The notes under the pieces were generated by a model. That model saw only the letters and a program-made list of their open reading frames with translations. It had not been told where the DNA came from and searched no databases. Positions 1,996 to 48,692 of a DNA stretch of 64,000 nucleotides are shown here, piece by piece. How positions within the stretch are numbered: the first letter of the stretch is position 1; each line of letters starts with the position of its first letter. Source of the stretch: a virus. Its lineage: Duplodnaviria > Caudoviricetes. A program made the position numbers and the translations under genes. Location: IMG/VR virus record IMGVR_UViG_3300032782_000010, positions 1,930 through 65,929 of that record. One strand, written 5' to 3'.

Positions 1996-4383
1996 GTGCC
2001 TAAGAAGAGCAAGCCCGACGACGCCGCAGCGCCGACGAGTACTCCGCAAGAAAGTTCGGCTCCGCCCAAGCCAAAGAAGACGTTCGAGCCGTTAAAGCGC
2101 GAGCTCGTAAAGAACATACCAGACGAGCTCCGCGCCCTACGCCAGTGGGTCGGCTGGAAGCTAGAGTTCAAGGACGACGGAAAGGCCAACAAGCGCCCCG
2201 TCGACGCCTCGACCGGCTACTACGCGAGCACCACCGACAAGTCGAAGTACTCGACGTTCGACGTCGCGCTCGAGTCGATAGCGAAGTTCGGGCTGATGGG
2301 AGTAGGCTTCGTCTTCACCCGGGAGGATAACTACGTCGGCGTCGACCTCGACGCCTGCAGGGACAAGACGACGGGCGAGCTCGAGTCCTGGGCCCAGCAC
2401 GTCGTCGACCAGTTCGACACCTACTCGGAGGTCTCGCCGTCCGGCACCGGGATAAAGATGATCGTGCGCGGCAAGCTCCCCGGAGAAGGCAACCGCCGCG
2501 GCGCTATCGAGATGTACGAGCACGGCCGCTTCTTCACGATCACCGGCGCGATACCGACAGAGCACCCGCGCCCGATCGCCGAGCGCCAGGCCGCGATCGA
2601 CGCCCTCTACCGCGAGCACATCGCCATCCAGCCGGCCGAGGCGTACCAGGCCGCGCCGCCGCCGATCGACGACGCAGACCTCGACGCGATACGCGCGATC
2701 CCGGACAAGCAGCTGATAAGGATCGCCTCGAACGCCGCGAACGGAAAGAAGTTCAAGGACCTCTGGGACGGCTCTGCGGCCGCGTACGGCGACGACCAGT
2801 CGAGCGCCGACCTCGCGCTCTGCTCGCTCCTCGCCTTCTACACGGGCCGCGACGTCGCGCGCATCGACCGGCTCTTCCGACAGTCAGGTCTTATCCGGAA
2901 GAAGTGGGACGAGCGGCACGGCGCGCAGACGTACGGCGAGAAGACGATCGCGAAGGCGATCAGCGGCACGCGCGTCGTCTACGACCCGTCGACCCGGCTC
3001 TCGGAGCTCAACGACACCCTGAACGCCGAGATCTTCATCGAGCTCCACTCGGACGCCCTCTGCTACTGCTCGATGTGGAAGACGTGGCTCTCCTGGGAGG
3101 GCACGCACTGGAACTACCACTCCGGCGTCGAGAACTCCCGCGCGTACAACGCTACTTCCAACGTCCAGAAGTACCTCCTCGAGAAGGCCGCGGACGAGCC
3201 CGGCGAGCAGCGCAGGAAGCAGCTCCAGAAGTGGGGCGTGCAGTCGGGCGACAAGTACAAGCGCGACGCGATGCTCTACATCGCCGCGCAGCGGAGCGAC
3301 CTCCCGCCGTCGATCTTCGACCGAGACCCGATGCTCATCGCCGCCAAGAACGGCGTCGTCGACATGCGCAAGGAGTGCGGCCCGAACGAGCGCTTCCGCC
3401 CGGCGCGACGCGAGGACTACATAACGCGCTGCGCTGGCGCCAACTTCGACCTCAAGAAGGAGTGCCCCACGTTCAACAAGTTCCTCTTCGACGTCATGCA
3501 GGGCGACGACGAGATGATAAAGTACATCTGGCGCGTGATGGGATACGCGCTGACGGGCGACATACGCGAGAGGGCGTTCTTCATCCTGCACGGCGGCGGG
3601 CGAAACGGCAAGACGACGTTCCTCGAGCTGCTGATGGCGCTCGGCGGGACGTACGCACAGAAGGCCAGGTTCTCGTCGTTCCTGAAGAAGAAGAACGACG
3701 CAGGCCCGAACGACGACATCGCTCACATGGTGGGCTCGCGGATAATCGTGGCGAGCGAGGCCGAGGAGGGCGCAGCGCTCAACACCTCGCTCATCAAGGA
3801 GATGACCGGCGGAGACGCCATCCGCGCCAGGTTCCTCTACGGAAAGGAGTTCGAGTTCAGGCCAGTAGCCAAGTTCTTCTTCGCGACCAACGCCATTCCG
3901 AACATCTACGAGTCGACGGAGGCGATATGGGACAGGATCCACTGCATACCCTTCACGTACCGAATCCCGGACGACAAGATCGACAAGATGCTGGGGCTGA
4001 AACTTCGCGAGGAGCTCGACGCGATCTTCTCGCAGGCCGTGATGTACTGCGCCATCTGGCAGGCGATCGGCAACCTGCTCCCGCCGGACAAGGTGAGGAA
4101 GAGCGTGAGTCATCTGAGAGAAGAAATGGACGTCTTCGGCGAGTGGCTAAACGAGTGCGTCGAGCCCTTCGAGACGACCAACGACGCGCTTACGAGAGTC
4201 GGCGAGACGTACAACAACTATCGCGAGTGGAACGAGAAGACCCGTGGCAAGGGCATGAAACCACGCTCGAAGATAGCTCTAGTACGCTATCTGGCAAGCC
4301 ACGGGGTCAACGTCGAACCGGGCACGGATAACGTTAAGTTCTTCAAGGGGCTAGCTTTACGTCTTATAAGTCCACGGATTTGA
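1996..4383 (+). CDS. primase-polymerase/helicase (NrS-1 polymerase-like N-terminus plus P4/D5 SF3 helicase)
   Basis: QWVGW, GVDLDAC, SEVSPSGTG, IEMY..RFFTITG, DQSSAD; Walker A GGGRNGKTT; KEMTGGD.I.AR. Confidence 0.92.
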   Translation: MPKKSKPDDAAAPTSTPQESSAPPKPKKTFEPLKRELVKNIPDELRALRQWVGWKLEFKDDGKANKRPVDASTGYYASTTDKSKYSTFDVALESIAKFGLMGVGFVFTREDNYVGVDLDACRDKTTGELESWAQHVVDQFDTYSEVSPSGTGIKMIVRGKLPGEGNRRGAIEMYEHGRFFTITGAIPTEHPRPIAERQAAIDALYREHIAIQPAEAYQAAPPPIDDADLDAIRAIPDKQLIRIASNAANGKKFKDLWDGSAAAYGDDQSSADLALCSLLAFYTGRDVARIDRLFRQSGLIRKKWDERHGAQTYGEKTIAKAISGTRVVYDPSTRLSELNDTLNAEIFIELHSDALCYCSMWKTWLSWEGTHWNYHSGVENSRAYNATSNVQKYLLEKAADEPGEQRRKQLQKWGVQSGDKYKRDAMLYIAAQRSDLPPSIFDRDPMLIAAKNGVVDMRKECGPNERFRPARREDYITRCAGANFDLKKECPTFNKFLFDVMQGDDEMIKYIWRVMGYALTGDIRERAFFILHGGGRNGKTTFLELLMALGGTYAQKARFSSFLKKKNDAGPNDDIAHMVGSRIIVASEAEEGAALNTSLIKEMTGGDAIRARFLYGKEFEFRPVAKFFFATNAIPNIYESTEAIWDRIHCIPFTYRIPDDKIDKMLGLKLREELDAIFSQAVMYCAIWQAIGNLLPPDKVRKSVSHLREEMDVFGEWLNECVEPFETTNDALTRVGETYNNYREWNEKTRGKGMKPRSKIALVRYLASHGVNVEPGTDNVKFFKGLALRLISPRI

Positions 4384-4646: not shown

Positions 4647-5024
4647 ATGGCGCGCAAGAAACAGAAACCTCGCGGCATCAGCAAGCTTCGTCTTCAAGAC
4701 CCATCCATTCCAAATCCTCTCGCCCCATATCAGTTCAAGCCCGGACAGATCGCGAACCCCCTCGGACTGTCCAAGAAGCGCCGCCTCAGCGAAGCGATCG
4801 CAGATGAGGCGGCGCGTCTCGTGAAGTTGAACGAGGAGGAAGTCACTCGCGCAGGAGTGCTCGCGAAGAAGCTGCTCGATCGAGCAGAGAACGACTCGAC
4901 GGAGCTCGAGCGTGTTCTCAGGATCACAGAGCCGGAGCTCGCGGCTAAAACTCTTTCCTCTGGTGTTGGACTTTCAGTCCAGACGGAGGATGTATCGGTG
5001 GTGTTTCAGAAGATCGGCTTATAG
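4647..5024 (+). CDS. terminase small subunit (DUF5681-like)
   Basis: PYQFKPGQIANPLG motif; immediately upstream of the large terminase. Confidence 0.75.
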   Translation: MARKKQKPRGISKLRLQDPSIPNPLAPYQFKPGQIANPLGLSKKRRLSEAIADEAARLVKLNEEEVTRAGVLAKKLLDRAENDSTELERVLRITEPELAAKTLSSGVGLSVQTEDVSVVFQKIGL

Positions 5025-8752: not shown

Positions 8753-10948
8753 GTGAGCTGGTACTCCAAGTCGCGGTGGTTGGCAGCAGCAATCTTCTTC
8801 TTGCTGCTGCCGTTCGTCGTTTTCTCCCAGACGAAGATCAGGCTGCACGACGCGGCGTCGGACGTCTCGGGCTACAAGAAGGCGGACCTGGCTCTTGGCC
8901 CTTCGAACACCACGGCGGTGACCAACACTCAGGCGAGCGGCACGGACATCCAGGTGACGAAGACCGGCGGCGGCTCGACGGTCGCCTGGATAACTCAGCC
9001 GTTTCAGACGGCGGTGACGATCTCGGGGACGGTGACGTGCAACATCTACGCGGGCGAGTCAGCGACGTCGGCGAACGCAGCGCTGCGCTGTCGTCTGTAC
9101 AAGTACTCCGGTGGCTCGGAGGGCTCGACGTTCATGACGGCGAACATGTCGACCGAGCTCTCGACGTCGACTACGACGGTTCGGAACTGGACTGGCTCGC
9201 CGACGAGCACGAGCTTCGCCGCTGGCGATCGCCTCGTCATCAAGCTCTTTCTCGAGAACTGCGCGACGAGCGGCTGTCCGACCGGGACGATGGCAGGATC
9301 TCAAACGGTGACGGTGGGCTACGACGGCACGACGGACGGCTCGAACGCCGCGAGCTGGGTGCAGACGAACGAGAACTTGGTCTTGAGTCCTTCGCCTTCG
9401 GTCTCCCTCACGACGAGCGATTCATGCGTGACGTCAACTTGCCGAGCCGCATCGCCGATCGACACGGTGATCGGTTCGGATTCGGTCGCCGCAACGAAGG
9501 GATCTTCAAATACCGTAACACCGTCAGAAAGTTTGACGACCAGCGATTCGGCCCGCGCAACGACGTTCAAATCTGGTGCTGTCTCGGAAAGTCTTACTAC
9601 CACGTCTTCTGTGATTACGGCGGCGGGTTTCGTCAAGTCGCCCACCGAGTCGCTGACCACGACGTCTTCGTGCGCTACGGCTATTTGTCGACCGATAGGG
9701 GTGATAGATACGGTCATTGGCTTGGACTCGGTGGCGGCGAGTCATGGATACTTTACCGCCGTGTCGGAGTCGCTGACGACGAGCGCGTCCGGGAGCGGGT
9801 CGACCTCGACCTCGAAGAACGCGAGCGTGTCGGAGTCGCTGACGACGAGCGCGTCGTGCTCTGCGTCTACCTGCCGCCCGGTGCCGATCATCGAGACGGT
9901 GCTGAGCTCGGACTCCGTTATAACTGGTCACAACTTCAGCATCCCGATCACTCAGAACTTAAGTACTCAGGACAACGTCAGCGGAAGGATCGCGAGCATA
10001 TCTATCTCCGAGAGTCTGAGCACGTCGAGCTCGGCGACGGCCGTAAAGAACAACGGCGGGATAGTGGTAGAGAATCTGACGACGAGCTCTTCGGTGACGG
10101 CTACCAAGGTGGCGTCCGTATCGCTCTCAGAGAATCTAAGTACGATAGACTCCTTGCTTGCGCTACTCTGCGGCGCGATTCCGGAGAACCTGACGACCGT
10201 CGCGACGCCGGTCGTGACGGCTCAGTACAACAGAGTAGCGTCCGAGTCTCTCACGACGAGCGGGACGACGCTGACCTCGCTGGGGCTTCACGTTTCGGTA
10301 TCTCAGAGCTTGACTACGACGGACTCGTCGGCGACGACGAGGTCTCTCCTGGTATCGGAGTCAGAGTCGCTCACTACGAACGACGCGGTCGCGACGTCGA
10401 ACACGACGCCGAACAGCATCCACGTGAGCAACACCTTGACGACTACGGATCTAGTGACTGCGATCTCGGACCAGTCGGTGAGCATAAACAACACGTATAC
10501 TCCGACGGACGCGGTAGCTTCCCAGCTGGACGCCGCAGCGTCGGTAGCAGTGAGCATTCCTACCGTGGCGAGCGTGAACGTAGCCACGATAGCTCACTTC
10601 TCGGTGGACGTATCGGAGAGCTTAACTACGGCCGCGTCGGGATCGACGTTCTCTCAGTTCGTGAGATCGCTTACGGAGAACACCGCGACGTCGGACTTCG
10701 CGAGTCAGTTGAAGTCTCTCGGTGCGTCGGCCTCGGAGAACTTGGCTACAAGCGACGCGGTCACGGTGTCTTCTACCCATCTGCTCTTCGTCGCGGCGAC
10801 GACGACTCTCCACGAGAGCGACGCCGTCGGGACGGTTTCGCCGCTAGCTGTTCAGATGGGAGAAGGGACGAGCACCCAGGACGTCGTTACGGTTACGGTC
10901 ATAAGGTTTGGGACGCGGAGACGCTTCGTGATTATCGAAACACCATAG
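8753..10948 (+). CDS. Ser/Thr-rich repeat protein with signal peptide (putative filament/fibre)
   Basis: WLAAAIFFLLLPFVVFSQ leader; about 25 degenerate S-E-S/N-L-T-T repeats at ~20-aa spacing. Confidence 0.8.
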   Translation: MSWYSKSRWLAAAIFFLLLPFVVFSQTKIRLHDAASDVSGYKKADLALGPSNTTAVTNTQASGTDIQVTKTGGGSTVAWITQPFQTAVTISGTVTCNIYAGESATSANAALRCRLYKYSGGSEGSTFMTANMSTELSTSTTTVRNWTGSPTSTSFAAGDRLVIKLFLENCATSGCPTGTMAGSQTVTVGYDGTTDGSNAASWVQTNENLVLSPSPSVSLTTSDSCVTSTCRAASPIDTVIGSDSVAATKGSSNTVTPSESLTTSDSARATTFKSGAVSESLTTTSSVITAAGFVKSPTESLTTTSSCATAICRPIGVIDTVIGLDSVAASHGYFTAVSESLTTSASGSGSTSTSKNASVSESLTTSASCSASTCRPVPIIETVLSSDSVITGHNFSIPITQNLSTQDNVSGRIASISISESLSTSSSATAVKNNGGIVVENLTTSSSVTATKVASVSLSENLSTIDSLLALLCGAIPENLTTVATPVVTAQYNRVASESLTTSGTTLTSLGLHVSVSQSLTTTDSSATTRSLLVSESESLTTNDAVATSNTTPNSIHVSNTLTTTDLVTAISDQSVSINNTYTPTDAVASQLDAAASVAVSIPTVASVNVATIAHFSVDVSESLTTAASGSTFSQFVRSLTENTATSDFASQLKSLGASASENLATSDAVTVSSTHLLFVAATTTLHESDAVGTVSPLAVQMGEGTSTQDVVTVTVIRFGTRRRFVIIETP
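9760..9855 (+). repeat. 30-bp direct repeat inside the repeat-protein gene
   Basis: CGTGTCGGAGTCGCTGACGACGAGCGCGTC at 9760-9789 and 9826-9855. Confidence 0.9.
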
Positions 10949-12446: not shown

Positions 12447-14488
12447 GGAAATTTTCTCTAATTGCGGCGATTCTCTTCTTCACTCCCTTCGCTCAGGCGG
12501 CAACACATTGGGTCAGCCCGACCGGAGCCGCGGCGTATGGAAGTTGTATGGGCGCGTCTCCGCTGAGCGGAACGAGCGCTTGTTCGCTCGGCACAGCGAA
12601 TGCAAATGCTATCGCCGGAGACCTTGTTTACCTGAGGGCGGGTACTTACAGCACCGGGGTAGCGCCAACGCACAGCGGTTCTAGTGGGAATCGAATCACT
12701 TTTCAGGAATATCCTACCGATGGCTCGCAAACGGCAATCATTTCTGGCGTCATCTATGGGATTGACCTTGAAGCTGTTTCCTATATCGTTGTGCTGAATC
12801 TGGAAATTCTCAATCCGACCGTGCATTGGGGGAACATCACCGAAGGTGCTCACCACAACGAGGTAGCTAATTGTCTCTTCTTGGTAACCGGCACCCAAAG
12901 CGCACCGTCTTTCTTCATCGGCCCAAATTCCGATCTTCTCTTCCCTACACATAACTGGATTCACAACAACACCTTTAGCTGGACTCCAGGGGCAAAGTCA
13001 GTTGGAACAGAAGGCGCTGGCTGTACAGACGGCGGCGGGGACGACCTAGACGTTGGACAGTCGGGCGGAACCTACGGCAACACGACGGGCGATAACAGCA
13101 ACAACAACTCGATTGAGAACAATATTTTCAACCACGCCCCTCACGCAGCGTTCGACGGATACGCCAAGTTCACGGTATTCAGAGGGAATATAATCAATAA
13201 CGAACCGTGGTCATCCGGTTGCTCAACCACGACGAACTACTCCAATACTCTCTATTCTAACTCGACTTACAACGGGAAGTACGCTCACAGAGACGCTCAG
13301 TTCACGGAAGACTTCAATCGCGACATGACTTTCAACTTGTTCGAGGGGAATCGCTTCGGCTACGCTGGCATCAATCAAGACAATGACGGCGCTGAGAATT
13401 TTGACCTCGCTACGGACGGCTCAATCCTTCGCTATAGTTTCTTCTACGCCTCGATGGGTTCCTGCCTTCAGTTCAAGTACACCAGAGGAGGTGGCGTAGG
13501 TGGAGGCGGAAATGGTGGAACCTACAACCGTACTTACAACAACACTTTCTATGATTGCGGAATTGGCTGGCCCCCTGCCGTGCTGGCAGTCGGAAGTGGC
13601 TGCAACACTAGCTCATGTCCATTTGCCGCGGTAGCCATCTCAAACTACATCGGCGGCTCATCCGGCTCGGCGCAGGGCAATGTAGTAAAGAACAACCTCA
13701 TCTATGAGCCGGATTCGCTTGGTCTCGCTACCTATCATGCCGATGCGATTGACCATAGTCCGGGAGGCTCTAGCCCTCCCTTCTCCCCTACTATTTCATG
13801 GACTGAATTTGCATCCGCCACAAACAACTGGTGTACTCAAGCGCAAACTTCTGGCGGCGCTTGTTCGGCTACTGGGAATCCCTTGTTCACAAATCCCGAT
13901 ATTACAACGCCATCCAGCATAACACTTCCAGACTTATCTCTTCAATCAGGCTCACCTGCCATCAATGGCGGAACATGGCTCACCACAGCGACAAACTCAG
14001 GTTCTAGCTCAACGACTCTAACTGTTGCTGACGCGCAATACTTCCAGGACGGAACTTGGGGGAGCGACCTTGCGAGGTTATCTGCTGGCCTTGGAGGAAC
14101 ATTCCAGCCGGATTGCATCGCTATCACGACGGTTACGAATACGGTCTGCATCGCCTCTATCACTTATGGAACATACAATGCTCCTGCGGGAACGGTCGCA
14201 CTTGCCTCGCCTATGACTTGGAGCAGTGGGGCGCATATCTGGCTCTACAAGAAGTCTGACGGTTCAGTCGTGCTTGCCGGCGCGGCTCCGGATTATGGTG
14301 CGAGTGAGTTTACCGGTAGCGGTGCTAATCAGAACGGAAGTTGTATGGAGAATCTGACGACGACAGCAGCCGCGTCCACTCAGCGGGCGCTCCACGTTAA
14401 TCCTTCTGAGATTTTGACGACGACATCTTCGATTTCTGGAACAAGTGGTCACCAAAATCTCTTCGCGTGTCACCCGGCGACACCATAA
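12443..14488 (+). CDS. exported right-handed beta-helix (pectin-lyase-like) protein, possible depolymerase or adhesin
   Basis: Signal peptide ending AQA; HWVSPTG, AGDLVYLRAGTY, Asn-ladder repeats, LQSGSPAINGG and APDYGASEF; lower GC. Confidence 0.8.
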   Translation: MRKFSLIAAILFFTPFAQAATHWVSPTGAAAYGSCMGASPLSGTSACSLGTANANAIAGDLVYLRAGTYSTGVAPTHSGSSGNRITFQEYPTDGSQTAIISGVIYGIDLEAVSYIVVLNLEILNPTVHWGNITEGAHHNEVANCLFLVTGTQSAPSFFIGPNSDLLFPTHNWIHNNTFSWTPGAKSVGTEGAGCTDGGGDDLDVGQSGGTYGNTTGDNSNNNSIENNIFNHAPHAAFDGYAKFTVFRGNIINNEPWSSGCSTTTNYSNTLYSNSTYNGKYAHRDAQFTEDFNRDMTFNLFEGNRFGYAGINQDNDGAENFDLATDGSILRYSFFYASMGSCLQFKYTRGGGVGGGGNGGTYNRTYNNTFYDCGIGWPPAVLAVGSGCNTSSCPFAAVAISNYIGGSSGSAQGNVVKNNLIYEPDSLGLATYHADAIDHSPGGSSPPFSPTISWTEFASATNNWCTQAQTSGGACSATGNPLFTNPDITTPSSITLPDLSLQSGSPAINGGTWLTTATNSGSSSTTLTVADAQYFQDGTWGSDLARLSAGLGGTFQPDCIAITTVTNTVCIASITYGTYNAPAGTVALASPMTWSSGAHIWLYKKSDGSVVLAGAAPDYGASEFTGSGANQNGSCMENLTTTAAASTQRALHVNPSEILTTTSSISGTSGHQNLFACHPATP

Positions 14489-44700: not shown

Positions 44701-44764
44701 CTCGGGCTTGGGACCGAGACCTGCGCATTACGGCGAGACGCGTGACCGGCCCGCCGCCCTCTGC
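44701..44764 (-). ncRNA. twister-like self-cleaving ribozyme (circularly permuted, P5-type order)
   Basis: Minus strand GCAGAGGG-[CGGCG...CGCCG P1]-UAAUGCGC-AGGU-CUCGG-UCCCAAGC-CCGAG; UGC/GCA (P2), CCC/GGG (T1) and GC/GC (T2) pairings possible. Confidence 0.72.
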
Positions 44765-44775
44765 TTTTCTTCGTC

Positions 44776-45493: not shown

Positions 45494-45550
45494 GGTCTCG
45501 TCAGTGAGCGTCTCACGCTCAGACGGCGGGTGGATCCCGCCGTTTCGACC
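45494..45550 (-). ncRNA. type II hammerhead ribozyme
   Basis: Minus strand GGUC-GAAA-CGGCGGG-AUCCA-CCCGCCG-UC^UGAGCG-UGAGA-CGCUCA-CUGACGA-GACC; complete core, three perfect stems. Confidence 0.95.
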
Positions 45551-46707
45551 TACTCTACGACCGTCATCGCGCCGCCGGCGAAGTCTTGAAGCTCGAGCTT
45601 CCGGCGCTCGTCGCTCGTCTCGTTCGCCAGCCAGGAGAGCGCGTTCGACCAGCGCCAAGCGGTCTGGCCCGCCGGGAGCAGCTCGACGTCGGCCGACGAG
45701 AACTTCTCGACGACCTTCTCGCCCTCCTCCTTGTTGAGGTGCTTCTTGACCCACGTCGTGATCGCGCTCGGCGCGATCTTCTCTTCGTTCGCTCGCTTGA
45801 CCATCGCGAGGTAGCGGTTGACGGCGTCAGAGCCGAGTACGTTCTTCGTCACGTCGTTGACGGCCGAGGCCATCGCCTTGGTGTCGAGCTCGTACGTCTG
45901 CGTGCTGAACTGGACGTTGTCCGGCAGCCGCTTCCCGAGGTGGACCTGAGAGAGAACGTCCTCGGTCGTCGCCAGGTTGGTGCACCACATGCGCTCGACG
46001 AAGCCGTTGACGGCCAGCTTCCCGTCGCCGTAGTCGGAGTCGCGTATCTCGGCGCCGAACGCCATGATCTCGCCGGGGAACGGCTCGAAGACGTACGGCA
46101 GGATGGCGCGAAGGTGGATCTTGGTCTGGAGCGCGAAGCCGTCTATCGGACGGGCGCCGAACTCCTGGATGCCCTTGATGAACGCCTCGAGCACCGGGCG
46201 CGAGTCGAGTCGACGATACTTGTCGCTCAGGAAGCCGCGGAGCTCGCCGCGTACGCTGCGGAGCAGGAAGCGGTCGCCGTTGAGGTGCGAGTAGACCTCG
46301 TTGAAGAAGTGCGCGACGAGCTTCGCGCCCCACTCGCCGCGAGAGCGGAGCTCGCTCACTACCGTGCCGAGGTTGCGGATACCGGCGCGGCCGGCGACCT
46401 GCGCTAGCGCGTGGTCGTGAACCTGGAGCTGCTGCTTGTCGGGGGTGATAGCGACCAGGCCGCGTTGGTTCGGCTCGAGCACTACGCCCGGTGCCCGCGC
46501 TGCGAAGAAGGCGCCGTTCGCCTCGAAGTGTAGCGCTCGGCCGAGCGCTACCTGGTCGGCGGGGATGTCCCTCTCTACCTGCTCGATCACGTTAGCGACT
46601 CGAGAGACGCTCCCGTGGATGCGCTCTTCGAGCCTCTTCCGGAACGTCTCTGCGGCTTCTCCTACTGCGACGTCGTACGGACGCTCGTCGTGGTGTGTCA
46701 TCGTCAT
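45550..46707 (-). CDS. DUF932-like protein
   Basis: LRGFLSDKYRRLD, IRDSDYGDG...ERMWCTN...HLG; AAGGAGAACCAAA RBS. Confidence 0.7.
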   Translation of the reverse strand: MTMTHHDERPYDVAVGEAAETFRKRLEERIHGSVSRVANVIEQVERDIPADQVALGRALHFEANGAFFAARAPGVVLEPNQRGLVAITPDKQQLQVHDHALAQVAGRAGIRNLGTVVSELRSRGEWGAKLVAHFFNEVYSHLNGDRFLLRSVRGELRGFLSDKYRRLDSRPVLEAFIKGIQEFGARPIDGFALQTKIHLRAILPYVFEPFPGEIMAFGAEIRDSDYGDGKLAVNGFVERMWCTNLATTEDVLSQVHLGKRLPDNVQFSTQTYELDTKAMASAVNDVTKNVLGSDAVNRYLAMVKRANEEKIAPSAITTWVKKHLNKEEGEKVVEKFSSADVELLPAGQTAWRWSNALSWLANETSDERRKLELQDFAGGAMTVVE

Positions 46708-46740
46708 TTTGGTTCTCCTTCGAGCCTCGCGAGGCTCGTT

Positions 46741-46806
46741 CTCAGTCTCATCAGGCCGAGTGATACTCGGCGACGAGCGTCGACGTCGACGCTCGTTTCG
46801 ACTTAG
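46741..46806 (-). ncRNA. type II hammerhead ribozyme
   Basis: Minus strand CUAAGUC-GAAA-CGAGCGUCGACGUCGACGCUCG-UC^GCCGAG-UAUCA-CUCGGC-CUGAUGA-GACUGAG. Confidence 0.95.
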
Positions 46807-46842
46807 CGGGGGAGCATAAGGCACCTCCGTGAAAAAAAAATA

Positions 46843-47049
46843 TCAGCGAGCGCCGTGAGTTCCGTGCCCGGTAGGGCAGCAATCGCGGCAGAGCTCGGCG
46901 TATGGAGGAGAGAGTCTCTCGCTCTCTCCCGGCCCGTATGGGCGGCAGCAGTCAGGACAACGCATCAGCGTCGACGTTCCGGGGTTCGTCTTCGTCGGAA
47001 AGTCCGACCTCCCGCACTTGGCGCAACGTATATATCTAACGTTAGGCAC
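46843..47049 (-). CDS. Cys-rich (Zn-binding) small protein
   Basis: CAKC, CPDCC, CRDCC. Confidence 0.55.
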   Translation of the reverse strand: MPNVRYIRCAKCGRSDFPTKTNPGTSTLMRCPDCCRPYGPGESERLSPPYAELCRDCCPTGHGTHGAR

Positions 47050-47290
47050 GGGCGAGCCTCTCGATGCTCATAGAGTGAGCAACCGAATCCACACTCACGT
47101 GCTCGTACGAGAGTCCGTCGCCCACGGTGAGGAACGTCACCTCGAGGTCCTTCATCCCGTGGTCGTACTCGAGCACGTGGTCGAGCTTCGTCGCGAGCGC
47201 GTCGCCGTCGACCGTCTCCGGCGCGAGCATGCCGACCACTGCGACTTTCCCGGTCCTGATATTTCGCACAGAAAACCATGCTTGTGTCAT
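47042..47290 (-). CDS. hypothetical protein
   Basis: AAGGGAG RBS; first gene of the leftward operon. Confidence 0.65.
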   Translation of the reverse strand: MTQAWFSVRNIRTGKVAVVGMLAPETVDGDALATKLDHVLEYDHGMKDLEVTFLTVGDGLSYEHVSVDSVAHSMSIERLARA

Positions 47291-47306
47291 CTTTGTTTCT
47301 CCCTTC

Positions 47307-47377
47307 GATCTCGTCAGTCGCCGCGTAACGGCGAGACGCTCGAGCTCGCGAGAACTTCGCGAGTGAGCGTTTCGATC
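47307..47377 (-). ncRNA. type II hammerhead ribozyme
   Basis: Minus strand GAUC-GAAA-CGCUC-[ACUCGCGAAGUUCUCGCGAGCUC]-GAGCG-UC^UCGCCG-UUACG-CGGCGA-CUGACGA-GAUC. Confidence 0.95.
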
Positions 47378-47593
47378 TTGAATCTTTCTCGACGAGCGCC
47401 TAAGCTCTCGTCTCGCACCGAAGTTCAGCCTTACGGCCTCTCTCTTCGGTCTTGAGCTCTCCTGTCGGCGGCTACTTGAGGAATCTCCGTTTCGCGATCT
47501 ACTTCGGAGCTTGCATTCCCGTGGGGCTTATCCCACTCGGCGCTGACCGCCAGGAACTCCCGTAACTCCACTTGGCCCGTACTGCTATAAAGG

Positions 47594-47623
47594 ATAATAC
47601 TATTAACGATATTGCGATGTCCA
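47594..47623 (-). promoter_or_regulatory. sigma70-like promoter of the leftward operon
   Basis: Minus strand TGGACA-18 nt-TATTAT with AT-rich upstream DNA. Confidence 0.65.
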
Positions 47624-47687
47624 CTACTATTTTAGTGCGCATAAGTGCTTAAAAACGCTATAGTTACGAGATATTTACAAATAGAGC

Positions 47688-47717
47688 TTCCAATGCTGTT
47701 AAAACTATAGCTAGAAT
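47688..47717 (+). promoter_or_regulatory. possible rightward sigma70-like promoter
   Basis: TTCCAA-18 nt-TAGAAT; overlaps one arm of the inverted repeat GCTATAGTT (47657-47665)/AACTATAGC (47703-47711). Confidence 0.4.
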
Positions 47718-47727
47718 ACGTCTCGCC

Positions 47728-48111
47728 ATGGCGAAGACGACCAACGCGCTGGAAACGACGAGCTCGAGACCAGCCTCGTCACGCGCAAGCGACGCGCGCT
47801 CATATCGCGCAGGTGCGTTGGGAGTCAACTGGTGGAGAACGAAGAAGAGGTGCCACGACTGCCCGTTCAACGACCACGGCGAGGGGCTGGCCCTCAGGAA
47901 GTCTCTCGCGCGAGGTCGCTGGAAGCAGATAGTCGACAACCTCCGAAGTGAAGGTCACTTTCCCTGCCACAACACAGTAGAGTACGACGACGAGGGCGAA
48001 GCGATTCGCAAGAGTGGAGTCTTGTGCTCAGGCGCGATCGAGTGGCAGGTGAAGAACAACGGTCAGCCAGGGCAACTAGCGCGAATCATGGAAAGATTGG
48101 ATAGCAGATGA
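47728..48111 (+). CDS. Cys/His-rich hypothetical phage protein
   Basis: CHDCPF, FPCH, C.GA motifs. Confidence 0.65.
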   Translation: MAKTTNALETTSSRPASSRASDARSYRAGALGVNWWRTKKRCHDCPFNDHGEGLALRKSLARGRWKQIVDNLRSEGHFPCHNTVEYDDEGEAIRKSGVLCSGAIEWQVKNNGQPGQLARIMERLDSR

Positions 48112-48692
48112 GAGACTCGCAGCGAACTCGGGCTCAGAGCGCACACGACGCGACGCGCGTCGCGATAGCGACGACTTCGTACTCGAAGTTCGAGAACCCG
48201 TTCGAGGCGTCGCAGACGTTTCTCGACCGCGTGACGCGCTCTCGCTGGTTCATCAACCGCTTCCGCGAGAAGGCGAGCCTCGGCTTCGTAATTAAACCGC
48301 TCGAGACGAATGCGAACGTCATCCGCCTGAGCTGGTCGTGGGAGTCTATCGCCATACGGCGAACGAGGTACAAGACGTGTCTCTTCCCCGTACTCTTCAT
48401 GCCCACGTGGGAGCTAGACGAGCTGACGATACTCCACGTCGTCGCTCACGCGCTGACGTCGAACGAGCACACCAGGGAGTGGGCGAAGACGTTCTTGAGA
48501 CTCACCGCCCACGTACTCGGACGCGAGAGCGCGACGACGCTGCGCGAGAACTTCAGGAGGCATCGCGTACGGTGGTACCCGAAGCGCACGCTCTCGAGCG
48601 ACGAGCTCGCTCGGCTGAGAGCGAGGGCGAAGGCGGTGCTCGTTCCGTTTCGCGAGAGGCCGGAGATAGAGTACGGCGGAGGTGGCGCGTGA
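48108..48692 (+). CDS. metallopeptidase-like protein (degenerate HExxH)
   Basis: MRDSQR N-terminus; ILHVVAHAL...H..EWA..F. Confidence 0.55.
   Translation: MRDSQRTRAQSAHDATRVAIATTSYSKFENPFEASQTFLDRVTRSRWFINRFREKASLGFVIKPLETNANVIRLSWSWESIAIRRTRYKTCLFPVLFMPTWELDELTILHVVAHALTSNEHTREWAKTFLRLTAHVLGRESATTLRENFRRHRVRWYPKRTLSSDELARLRARAKAVLVPFRERPEIEYGGGGA

Follow-up and report, generated by a model that had tools for sequence, protein, structure and literature searches.

On balance, the minus-strand stretch at 47335-47590 of the window (the whole 64,000-nt stretch of viral DNA that was analysed) is probably the untranslated 5' leader of a phage operon punctuated by ribozymes, without a detectable relative and removed by ribozyme processing. 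The motifs, their positions and their pattern of conservation are observations, and what they describe appears to be a leader that is disposable and does not represent a novel class of RNA; a function for the fragment that the first ribozyme would release is disfavoured by sequence comparison, as far as the single relative L035 can tell.

The window belongs to a 65.9-kb IMG/VR record from a wetland metagenome, with viral classification and an estimated completeness of 43%, and has a GC content of ~0.6. An AT-rich island at ~47600-47730 divides two divergent gene sets. The features on which the argument draws are the following.

Plus-strand gene set, across the AT-rich island from the leader operon: 127-aa protein (PHROG 5443)
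Plus-strand gene set: SNF2-type helicase
Plus strand, same gene set as the SNF2-type helicase: 194-aa protein
47594..47623, minus: sigma-70-like promoter, -35 TGGACA, N18, -10 TATTAT, 10/12 matches, predicted start near 47588
47383..47590, minus: non-coding leader proper, ~205 nt, no coding signature and no homologue found
47462..47556, minus: predicted three-way junction, CCUGGCGG/CCGCC..CAGG around GUGGG/CCCAC and GGAAU-CUCCG/CGGAG-AUUCC, present in the minimum-free-energy (MFE) fold
47391..47450, minus: two tandem hairpins, ACCGAAG..CUUCGGU (inner GGCC-GUAA-GGCU) and GACGAG..CUCGUC, just 5' of HH-A
47304..47382, minus: type II hammerhead HH-A, descriptor match with complete core, C17 = 47335, predicted cut 47335/47334
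47042..47303, minus: orf82, first cistron, ribosome site GGGAG (47303-47299), ATG 47290, GC3 0.80 and GC2 0.39 as in other genes
46804..47041, minus: second non-coding stretch, 238 nt, from orf82 to HH-B, no coding signature
46744..46803, minus: type II hammerhead HH-B, descriptor match, C17 = 46772, followed by a hairpin, a ribosome site and orf385
ATG 46707, minus: orf385, 385 aa (PHROG 1362, unknown function), start taken as in P0001
45494..45550, minus: type II hammerhead HH-C, descriptor match, C17 = 45522, overlapping the orf385 stop and preceding ATG 45471
ATG 45471, minus: 231-aa ORF, the next gene after orf385
44702..44765, minus: twister-P5 (Rfam 49.2 bits, gathering score 37.6) ahead of the FkbM-type methyltransferase gene
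44684-43806, minus: FkbM-type methyltransferase gene (Pfam PF05050)

The four self-cleaving ribozyme motifs thus all lie on the minus strand, one ahead of each of four operon genes, with a gap of 0-27 nt between ribozyme end and ribosome site at every one of them. With a ribozyme-punctuated phage transcript taken as one in which at least two ribozymes of the same orientation flank phage genes, singly or in short blocks, three hammerheads and one twister were found here. The first cistron, orf82, has no homologue besides itself and no Pfam or PHROG family; the 238-nt stretch behind it folds with a z of -1.44 and gave a weak match to the THF riboswitch in the 5-kb Rfam search (18.1 bits, E 5), which is at chance level.

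The case for the hammerheads rests on a strict type II descriptor. Its elements are GAAA, then one hairpin for stem III and another for stem I, each with 4 or more pairs and with U plus any base but G between the two, then CUGANGA, and a stem II that is open and has 3 or more pairs. The window contains exactly three matching sites, all in the minus-strand operon, compared with none in 30 windows simulated with a first-order Markov model, and three more were found in 113 related loci (647 kb), two of them in L035 and one in L045. The core of HH-A is complete (CUGACGA at 47317-47311, GAAA at 47373-47370, U47336 and C47335), its loop-closed stems I and III comprise 7 pairs and 5 outer pairs, and its open stem II comprises 4 pairs (47377-47374 with 47310-47307); by eye, stem II gains 3 further pairs across a bulge and stem III 7 inner pairs. 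When the six hammerheads are aligned, standard pairs fill every one of the 84 cells in stems I and II and at the base of III, 7 of 14 pairs change on both sides and none of 500 shuffles reaches the covariation score, figures to be read with the fact that the descriptor used for selection itself demands pairing.

Standard covariance-model annotation does not register these motifs. Whether 5 kb, 321 nt or the whole record was searched, RF02276 (gathering score 37 bits) gave no match to HH-A, HH-B or HH-C with E of 10 or less; the L035 homologue of HH-B reaches 35.8 bits, just under that 37-bit threshold, and HH-C has a weak partial match to the Rfam type I hammerhead (16.4 bits). A weak RF02276 match elsewhere in the window, at 10775-10843, was set aside as ordinary coding-like sequence by eye. 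That the Rfam type II model missed three canonical hammerheads in one window suggests that such operons are under-counted by standard annotation. Furthermore, the longest antiparallel runs between loop I and the bases 3' of stem II are 2-4 pairs, G-U included, in five hammerheads, and none lies directly after stem II; a loop I pseudoknot of at least 4 pairs with the bases just 3' of stem II is described for the majority of type II hammerheads, although not for all (PMC3088659). Given the missing RF02276 score and the lack of an evident pseudoknot, fast cleavage is an assumption. By its motif, HH-A is a genuine hammerhead, and release of a leader fragment by the predicted cut is likely.

The contrast between the leader and its flanks emerges from comparison with related phages. 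A search with orf385 returned 524 relatives at E up to 1e-10, and 33 IMG/VR and 80 metagenome loci around such relatives were compared (113 in total). Among these fetched loci, L035 is the only syntenic relative, with amino-acid identities of 75% for orf385, 72% for SNF2 and 52% for the 194-aa protein, and no closer relative was found in IMG/VR through the latter two proteins. Corresponding segments of the window and L035 were aligned globally, with 200 shuffles each. The promoter island (67% identity, z 13.9), HH-A through the start codon (79% over 80 aligned bases against the L035 hammerhead at 4656-4712, z 14.5) and HH-B (against the L035 hammerhead at 3429-3485, z 9.5) are clearly conserved, whereas the leader is not (z 1.5, 19 of 200 shuffles equally good), a pattern that speaks for a disposable leader. 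The corresponding slot in L035, ~265 nt at about 2262-2528, is gene-poor, unrelated in sequence to the window leader, and ends in a twister-like motif (29.6 bits, E 0.0014) that has the conserved core plus an inserted stem.

In both phages the leader is part of a variable cassette. The cassette of the window comprises leader, HH-A, orf82 and the 238-nt spacer, between a conserved promoter and a conserved HH-B/orf385 unit, and that of L035 comprises leader, twister, a mini-ORF and ORFs without a tblastn match to the queried window proteins. No homologue of the leader was found by blastn in 50,697 phage records, nor by word-7 blastn and tblastx in the 113 related loci or the window, the best match in the related loci being 21 nt within a coding region of L100 (E 0.007); the L035 leader matches itself alone. 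As read from the two sequences, what the phages have in common is an architecture (promoter, 200-270 nt of non-coding RNA ending in a hairpin pair, ribozyme, ribosome site) and not a leader sequence. Against a disposable leader stands the fact that 205-265 nt of RNA without a gene follow the promoter in both phages, more than a compact genome would be expected to spend on pure filler. Moreover, a single relative does not suffice to demonstrate that constraint is lacking, and the two leaders may be non-orthologous, each with a function of its own.

The folding results point in the same direction for most of the leader. Every nested stem listed in the initial annotation is present in the sequence and in the minimum-free-energy fold; its picture of a structured leader, however, does not hold for the whole, which folds no better than shuffled sequence, both with the stem III side of HH-A included (47590-47335, z -1.13, 27 of 200 shuffles equally good) and up to the hammerhead (47590-47384, z -1.10, 25 of 200). 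The first 61 nt (z +0.98, 172 of 200) and the three-way junction (47560-47462, z -0.33, 70 of 200) are equally unremarkable. The tandem hairpins at 47452-47390 are the sole tested part of the leader that beats its shuffles (z -3.63, 1 of 200, with the MFE structure making up 67% of the ensemble), a value that is somewhat flattering because this sub-window was picked after the fold had been seen. In L035, similarly, the full leader folds no better than chance (z -0.80) and only its last 79 nt, two hairpins adjoining the twister-like motif, beat the shuffles (z -2.05, 6 of 200). This hairpin pair is unrelated to that of the window and occupies the same place before the ribozyme; since a pair next to the ribozyme folds better than chance in both phages, that part of the leader may be under selection.

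Several readings that differ from a disposable leader have to be weighed, and two of them deny that a ~250-nt leader RNA, or a non-coding one, is made at all. Transcription might start further upstream, at AACTATAG, or at an unrecognised promoter nearer the hammerhead, a reading that appears quite unlikely. It draws on the possibility that the promoter type of the host differs from sigma-70, the consensus searched for, and on the overrepresentation of AACTATAG, which occurs in both orientations in the AT-rich island (47658-47665 on the minus and 47703-47710 on the plus strand), in surroundings conserved in L035, and has 3 copies in the window compared with 0.41 expected; the third copy, at 13432, lies in what is by eye ordinary coding-like sequence. 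The sigma-70-like site, on the other side, is the only one found in 46700-48200 (0.4 expected), and the 10-mer at 47605-47596 over its -10 area is identical in L035, two findings that together place the predicted start near 47588 and not near 47377. A start much closer to 47377 had been named at the outset as an outcome that would refute the ~250-nt leader; the sigma-70-like search returned nothing promoter-like between 47590 and 47384, and an upstream start would add merely ~70 nt to the leader. No terminator-like site was found in the region scanned for promoters. A DNA pattern derived from the promoter was also searched in IMG/VR, and its 43 matches, all AT-rich chance hits and none with a homologous gene, were discarded. 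Very improbable, in turn, is a small protein encoded by the leader, the candidate being the only sizeable ORF, 46 aa from GTG 47571. An open frame does exist there, and the L035 leader holds a 50-aa frame behind a good ribosome site; the two peptides, however, are unrelated, GTG 47571 has no ribosome site, and GC3 is 0.62 in this frame and 0.54-0.65 across the three leader frames, compared with 0.71-0.89 in seven neighbouring genes. A full HMMER scan of 1.84 billion proteins returned 7 matches to the 46-aa frame, all of them proteins of 436-2421 aa, and in the one that was aligned (P0124) the likeness consists of a 15-residue motif repeated many times. On the basis of GC3 and the HMMER matches the small protein was rejected, and the earlier statement that no credible ORF lies between promoter and first hammerhead agrees with this evidence.

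The remaining readings grant the RNA and assign it a role, in cis or in trans. As a cis-regulatory sensor, which we consider unlikely, the leader would act as an allosteric ribozyme, as a clamp on the ribosome site of orf82 or as an unknown riboswitch. In the unconstrained MFE fold of the precursor, leader positions ~47558-47536 do pair with the ribosome site (pair probability 0.8-0.96), stem I and the HH-A core, leaving 12 of 22 hammerhead pairs, and the 10-mer CGGGAGUUCC, which holds the anti-ribosome-site bases, is common to the L035 leader. Additionally, a SAM-I/IV riboswitch (Rfam RF01725) lies upstream of the orf385 homologue in L038 and L040 (44.2 and 41.2 bits), in L038 within the leader of that homologue, so functional leaders occur in related phages. 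Against a sensor, the duplex energy between leader and ribosome site has a z of -1.5, with 6% of dinucleotide shuffles as good, and a z of +1.5 in L035, while that between leader and ribozyme plus ribosome site has z values of -1.0 and +1.0 respectively; the hammerhead is disturbed in the MFE by 95 of 100 shuffled leaders too, with only 5 of 100 keeping all its pairs. Enforcing the hammerhead fold costs 3.2 kcal/mol of ensemble energy, compared with 4.0 +/- 1.9 for 100 shuffled leaders, so the leader neither favours nor avoids the ribozyme. Both the ribosome-site clamp and the anti-ribozyme pairing, being no stronger than in shuffles, were dropped as candidates; off-diagonal 10-mers in common are, moreover, frequent between the window and L035 regions, no terminator was found, and the 321-nt search returned no riboswitch family at E up to 10. 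Extremely improbable is an RNA anti-CRISPR, in which the element at 47559-47525 would imitate a CRISPR repeat. The termini of type I-E repeats are presumably similar to its two ends, which flank a small hairpin, and GAGTTCC-N-GGGATAA occurs once in the window and in none of 100 shuffles. The element is nevertheless longer than such repeats usually are, with a different stem, and no Rfam CRISPR-DR family matches it. RNA anti-CRISPRs that act as solitary repeat units are recognised by close likeness to the host's CRISPR repeat; when 185,579 genomes were scanned for both ends, the 80 stretches listed of at least 120 had a single match each and no array. A lineage-specific trans-acting phage RNA, for instance one that sequesters a host protein or a defence sensor as decoy or sponge, appears rather doubtful as well. 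The ribozyme would set its 3' end, the stem III hairpin would protect it, and its evolution would be too fast for recognisable relatives. In its favour are the position of the leader as the predicted first RNA from the promoter, its defined ends and 3' hairpin, the fact that L035 keeps a leader of about this length although the sequence has turned over completely, and its place in a variable cassette with an ORFan gene, which is typical of accessory and counter-defence regions. Conservation and Rfam matches are lacking in the searches performed, two thirds of the leader fold at chance level, and its complementarity to the rest of the window does not exceed chance.

Direct searches for a known RNA type in the leader were negative. 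The initial annotation had been unable to place the leader in any RNA class; likewise, the 321-nt search (47300-47620, E up to 10) returned no Rfam 15 family on the minus strand, and the 5-kb search returned none for the leader. No RNA run was listed that contains the region, and the contigs of a second DNA run leave the leader uncovered. ARAGORN found no tRNA- or tmRNA-like structure in the window, and a search of 47280-47780 for DNA repeats or iterons yielded just 10-14-nt matches, 79-100% identical. The missing Rfam match, the absence of relatives in the 113 loci and the 50,697 phage records and the unrelated slot of L035 count against a functional RNA. The proposal that cleavage liberates a discrete RNA therefore survives in part: a fragment with a defined 3' end is likely freed, as the stems of HH-A imply, and the decoy, anti-defence or regulatory role attached to it is unsupported.

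For the preferred reading, a disposable leader, we infer as follows where transcription starts, how cleavage proceeds in vivo and what becomes of the fragment. The host RNA polymerase would start near 47588 and make ~205 nt of non-conserved RNA with two stable hairpins at its end, after which HH-A would fold and cut after C47335. As just stem II, with 4 pairs or with 7 across a bulge, joins the hammerhead halves after the cut, a 5' fragment of ~254 nt should come free; it would be discarded, with a triphosphate at its 5' end and, at its 3' end, the stem III hairpin and a C47335 that bears a 2',3'-cyclic phosphate. The orf82 message would then carry a 5' hydroxyl, be capped by the stem I hairpin (6-7 pairs) and have a freed ribosome site immediately after it. 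HH-B, HH-C and the twister would repeat the cut for the next three genes, with an extra hairpin between HH-B and the ribosome site. Selection would accordingly keep the layout from promoter through leader and ribozyme to ribosome site, and not the sequence or overall fold of the leader. The 5' triphosphate, the long 3' stem III hairpin and the cyclic phosphate could nonetheless let the fragment persist, and the sequence data give no sign of its use.

A broader and distinctly improbable version of a functional product would make long ORF-free leaders, released by the first ribozyme of early phage operons, a recurrent, sequence-orphan class of early phage RNA that serves as bait for host RNA-sensing or RNA-repair systems. 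Such RNAs, produced in large amounts, would bear a triphosphate at the 5' end and a hairpin and a 2',3'-cyclic phosphate at the 3' end; their role as bait would make them evolve quickly, and their action would not depend on a conserved fold. The window and L035 would in that case represent a pair of members unrelated in sequence, in which only the hairpin pair by the ribozyme would be shared and under selection. Should the leader prove to be a stable functional RNA, it would represent the first job for a ribozyme by-product.

The disposable-leader reading, to return to the one preferred here, finds its closest technical parallel in engineered insulators of the RiboJ type, in which a hammerhead placed after the promoter and ahead of the ribosome site strips off a variable 5' leader, so that the message has a fixed end. 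The hammerhead of the window would similarly remove a variable leader, and a hairpin even follows HH-B ahead of its ribosome site; in contrast to these synthetic parts, the arrangement is natural, and an effect on expression is suggested by analogy. That the leader sequence is free to change in two related phages favours ribozymes that standardise message 5' ends, as the engineered insulators do, and a leader that does not act as a conserved RNA machine; with four ribozymes, each directly before a ribosome site, the locus offers a clean natural case. A second parallel lies within the related phages themselves: the SAM-I/IV riboswitches of L038 and L040 are structured RNAs behind a promoter, each ahead of a homologue of a gene of the window operon. 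The window leader differs in that it matches no riboswitch family and in that a ribozyme stands between it and the gene.

Type II hammerheads are common in bacteria (PMC3088659), and in the prophage clusters of that survey multiple hammerheads flank single genes (PMC3088659, Perreault et al. 2011), much as several same-strand ribozymes stand between single phage genes in the window. Polycistronic constructs of ~2 kb were cut at all sites in vitro, and in haloviruses HF1 and HF2 an HHphage hammerhead lies 13 nt before the first early gene, and no more than 3 nt separate its cleavage site from the 5' end mapped for the transcript (PMC3088659). The type II hammerhead of the window, placed a few nt before the first gene, would sever a leader in the same way as that of HF1 and HF2. 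It differs from the cases in that account in that the window hammerheads have no evident loop I pseudoknot and fall below Rfam type II detection, the piece cut off is long, at ~254 nt, the same operon combines hammerheads with a twister, and the system is known from sequence alone. Hammerhead and twister ribozymes have also been suggested to cut polycistronic RNAs into pieces of differing stability or translation (Weinberg et al. 2019, PMC6765202), and the window operon would correspond to the same ribozyme processing of a polycistronic phage transcript; as far as the discussion of bacterial and phage self-cleaving ribozymes in that paper goes, their purpose is called unresolved and released leaders are not presented as functional RNAs. 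Altogether, the ribozyme-processed leader arrangement has been described for phages since 2011 (PMC3088659), and the locus presented here is a further, tidy example of it.

The minus strand of this operon carries three type II hammerheads, designated HH-A, HH-B and HH-C, each with a complete canonical core:

47304-47382, minus strand: HH-A
46744-46803, minus strand: HH-B
45494-45550, minus strand: HH-C

In Rfam searches, the type II hammerhead model RF02276 matched none of the three, even at E values up to 10; a simple descriptor recovers all of them, with false matches in 0 of 30 simulated windows. The operon's hammerheads would thus escape standard annotation.

Comparison with the only syntenic relative locus, L035, bears on the possible mobility of these elements. 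The closest counterpart there of HH-A together with its ribosome site is a hammerhead at L035 4656-4712 (an 80-base alignment at 79% identity, z 14.5), which shares a loop I 11-mer with HH-A and lies downstream of orf385, the gene behind HH-B in the window (ATG 46707), so that its position differs from that of HH-A. Because HH-A best resembles a hammerhead in another position, the sequences suggest that ribozyme-plus-ribosome-site cassettes have been duplicated or moved. The kind of ribozyme occupying a given slot differs from relative to relative, with the following elements right after orf385 homologues in two further loci:

L044 4628-4687: twister-P5, 55.4 bits
L045 1227-1282: type II hammerhead, descriptor match

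Two metagenome contigs carrying orf385 homologues, L038 and L040, also contain SAM-I/IV riboswitch matches (gathering score 41.1):

L038 3298-3421: SAM-I/IV match, 44.2 bits
L040 145-261: SAM-I/IV match, 41.2 bits

In L038, a TTGACA-N17-TACACT promoter is followed by the match and directly thereafter by the orf385 homologue, so that a SAM riboswitch may control the gene in that contig.

Upstream of the operon, the AT-rich island (about 47600-47730) between the divergent operons contains an 8-mer in opposite orientations:

47658-47665, minus strand: AACTATAG
47703-47710, plus strand: AACTATAG

The window holds 3 copies, against 0.41 expected, and L035 shows conservation of the minus-strand copy at 47658-47665 and of the sequence around it. 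The 8-mer could act as an operator or form part of an alternative promoter.

Further features surround the operon's first gene, orf82 (ATG 47290), and the start of orf385:

47042-47290, minus strand: orf82, with a ribosome site and a GC3 of 0.80
46804-47041, minus strand: second gene-free stretch, 238 nt, between orf82 and HH-B
46723-46738, minus strand: perfect 6-pair hairpin GAGCCU-CGCG-AGGCUC

On its coding features, orf82 has the look of a genuine gene, and a search of 5.8 billion clustered proteins found no homologue besides itself. Within the gene-free stretch, nine consecutive U residues precede a ribosome site that is followed by a mini-ORF of 4 codons; its fold z is -1.44, and its match to the THF riboswitch in Rfam, with 18.1 bits and an E value of 5, is weak and no better than chance. 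L035 2626-2660 has, behind a twister-like motif, a good ribosome site with a mini-ORF of 5 codons, and the next real gene does not begin until about 170 nt further downstream. The hairpin stands behind HH-B, directly before the orf385 ribosome site, a layout similar to that of engineered ribozyme-plus-hairpin insulators.
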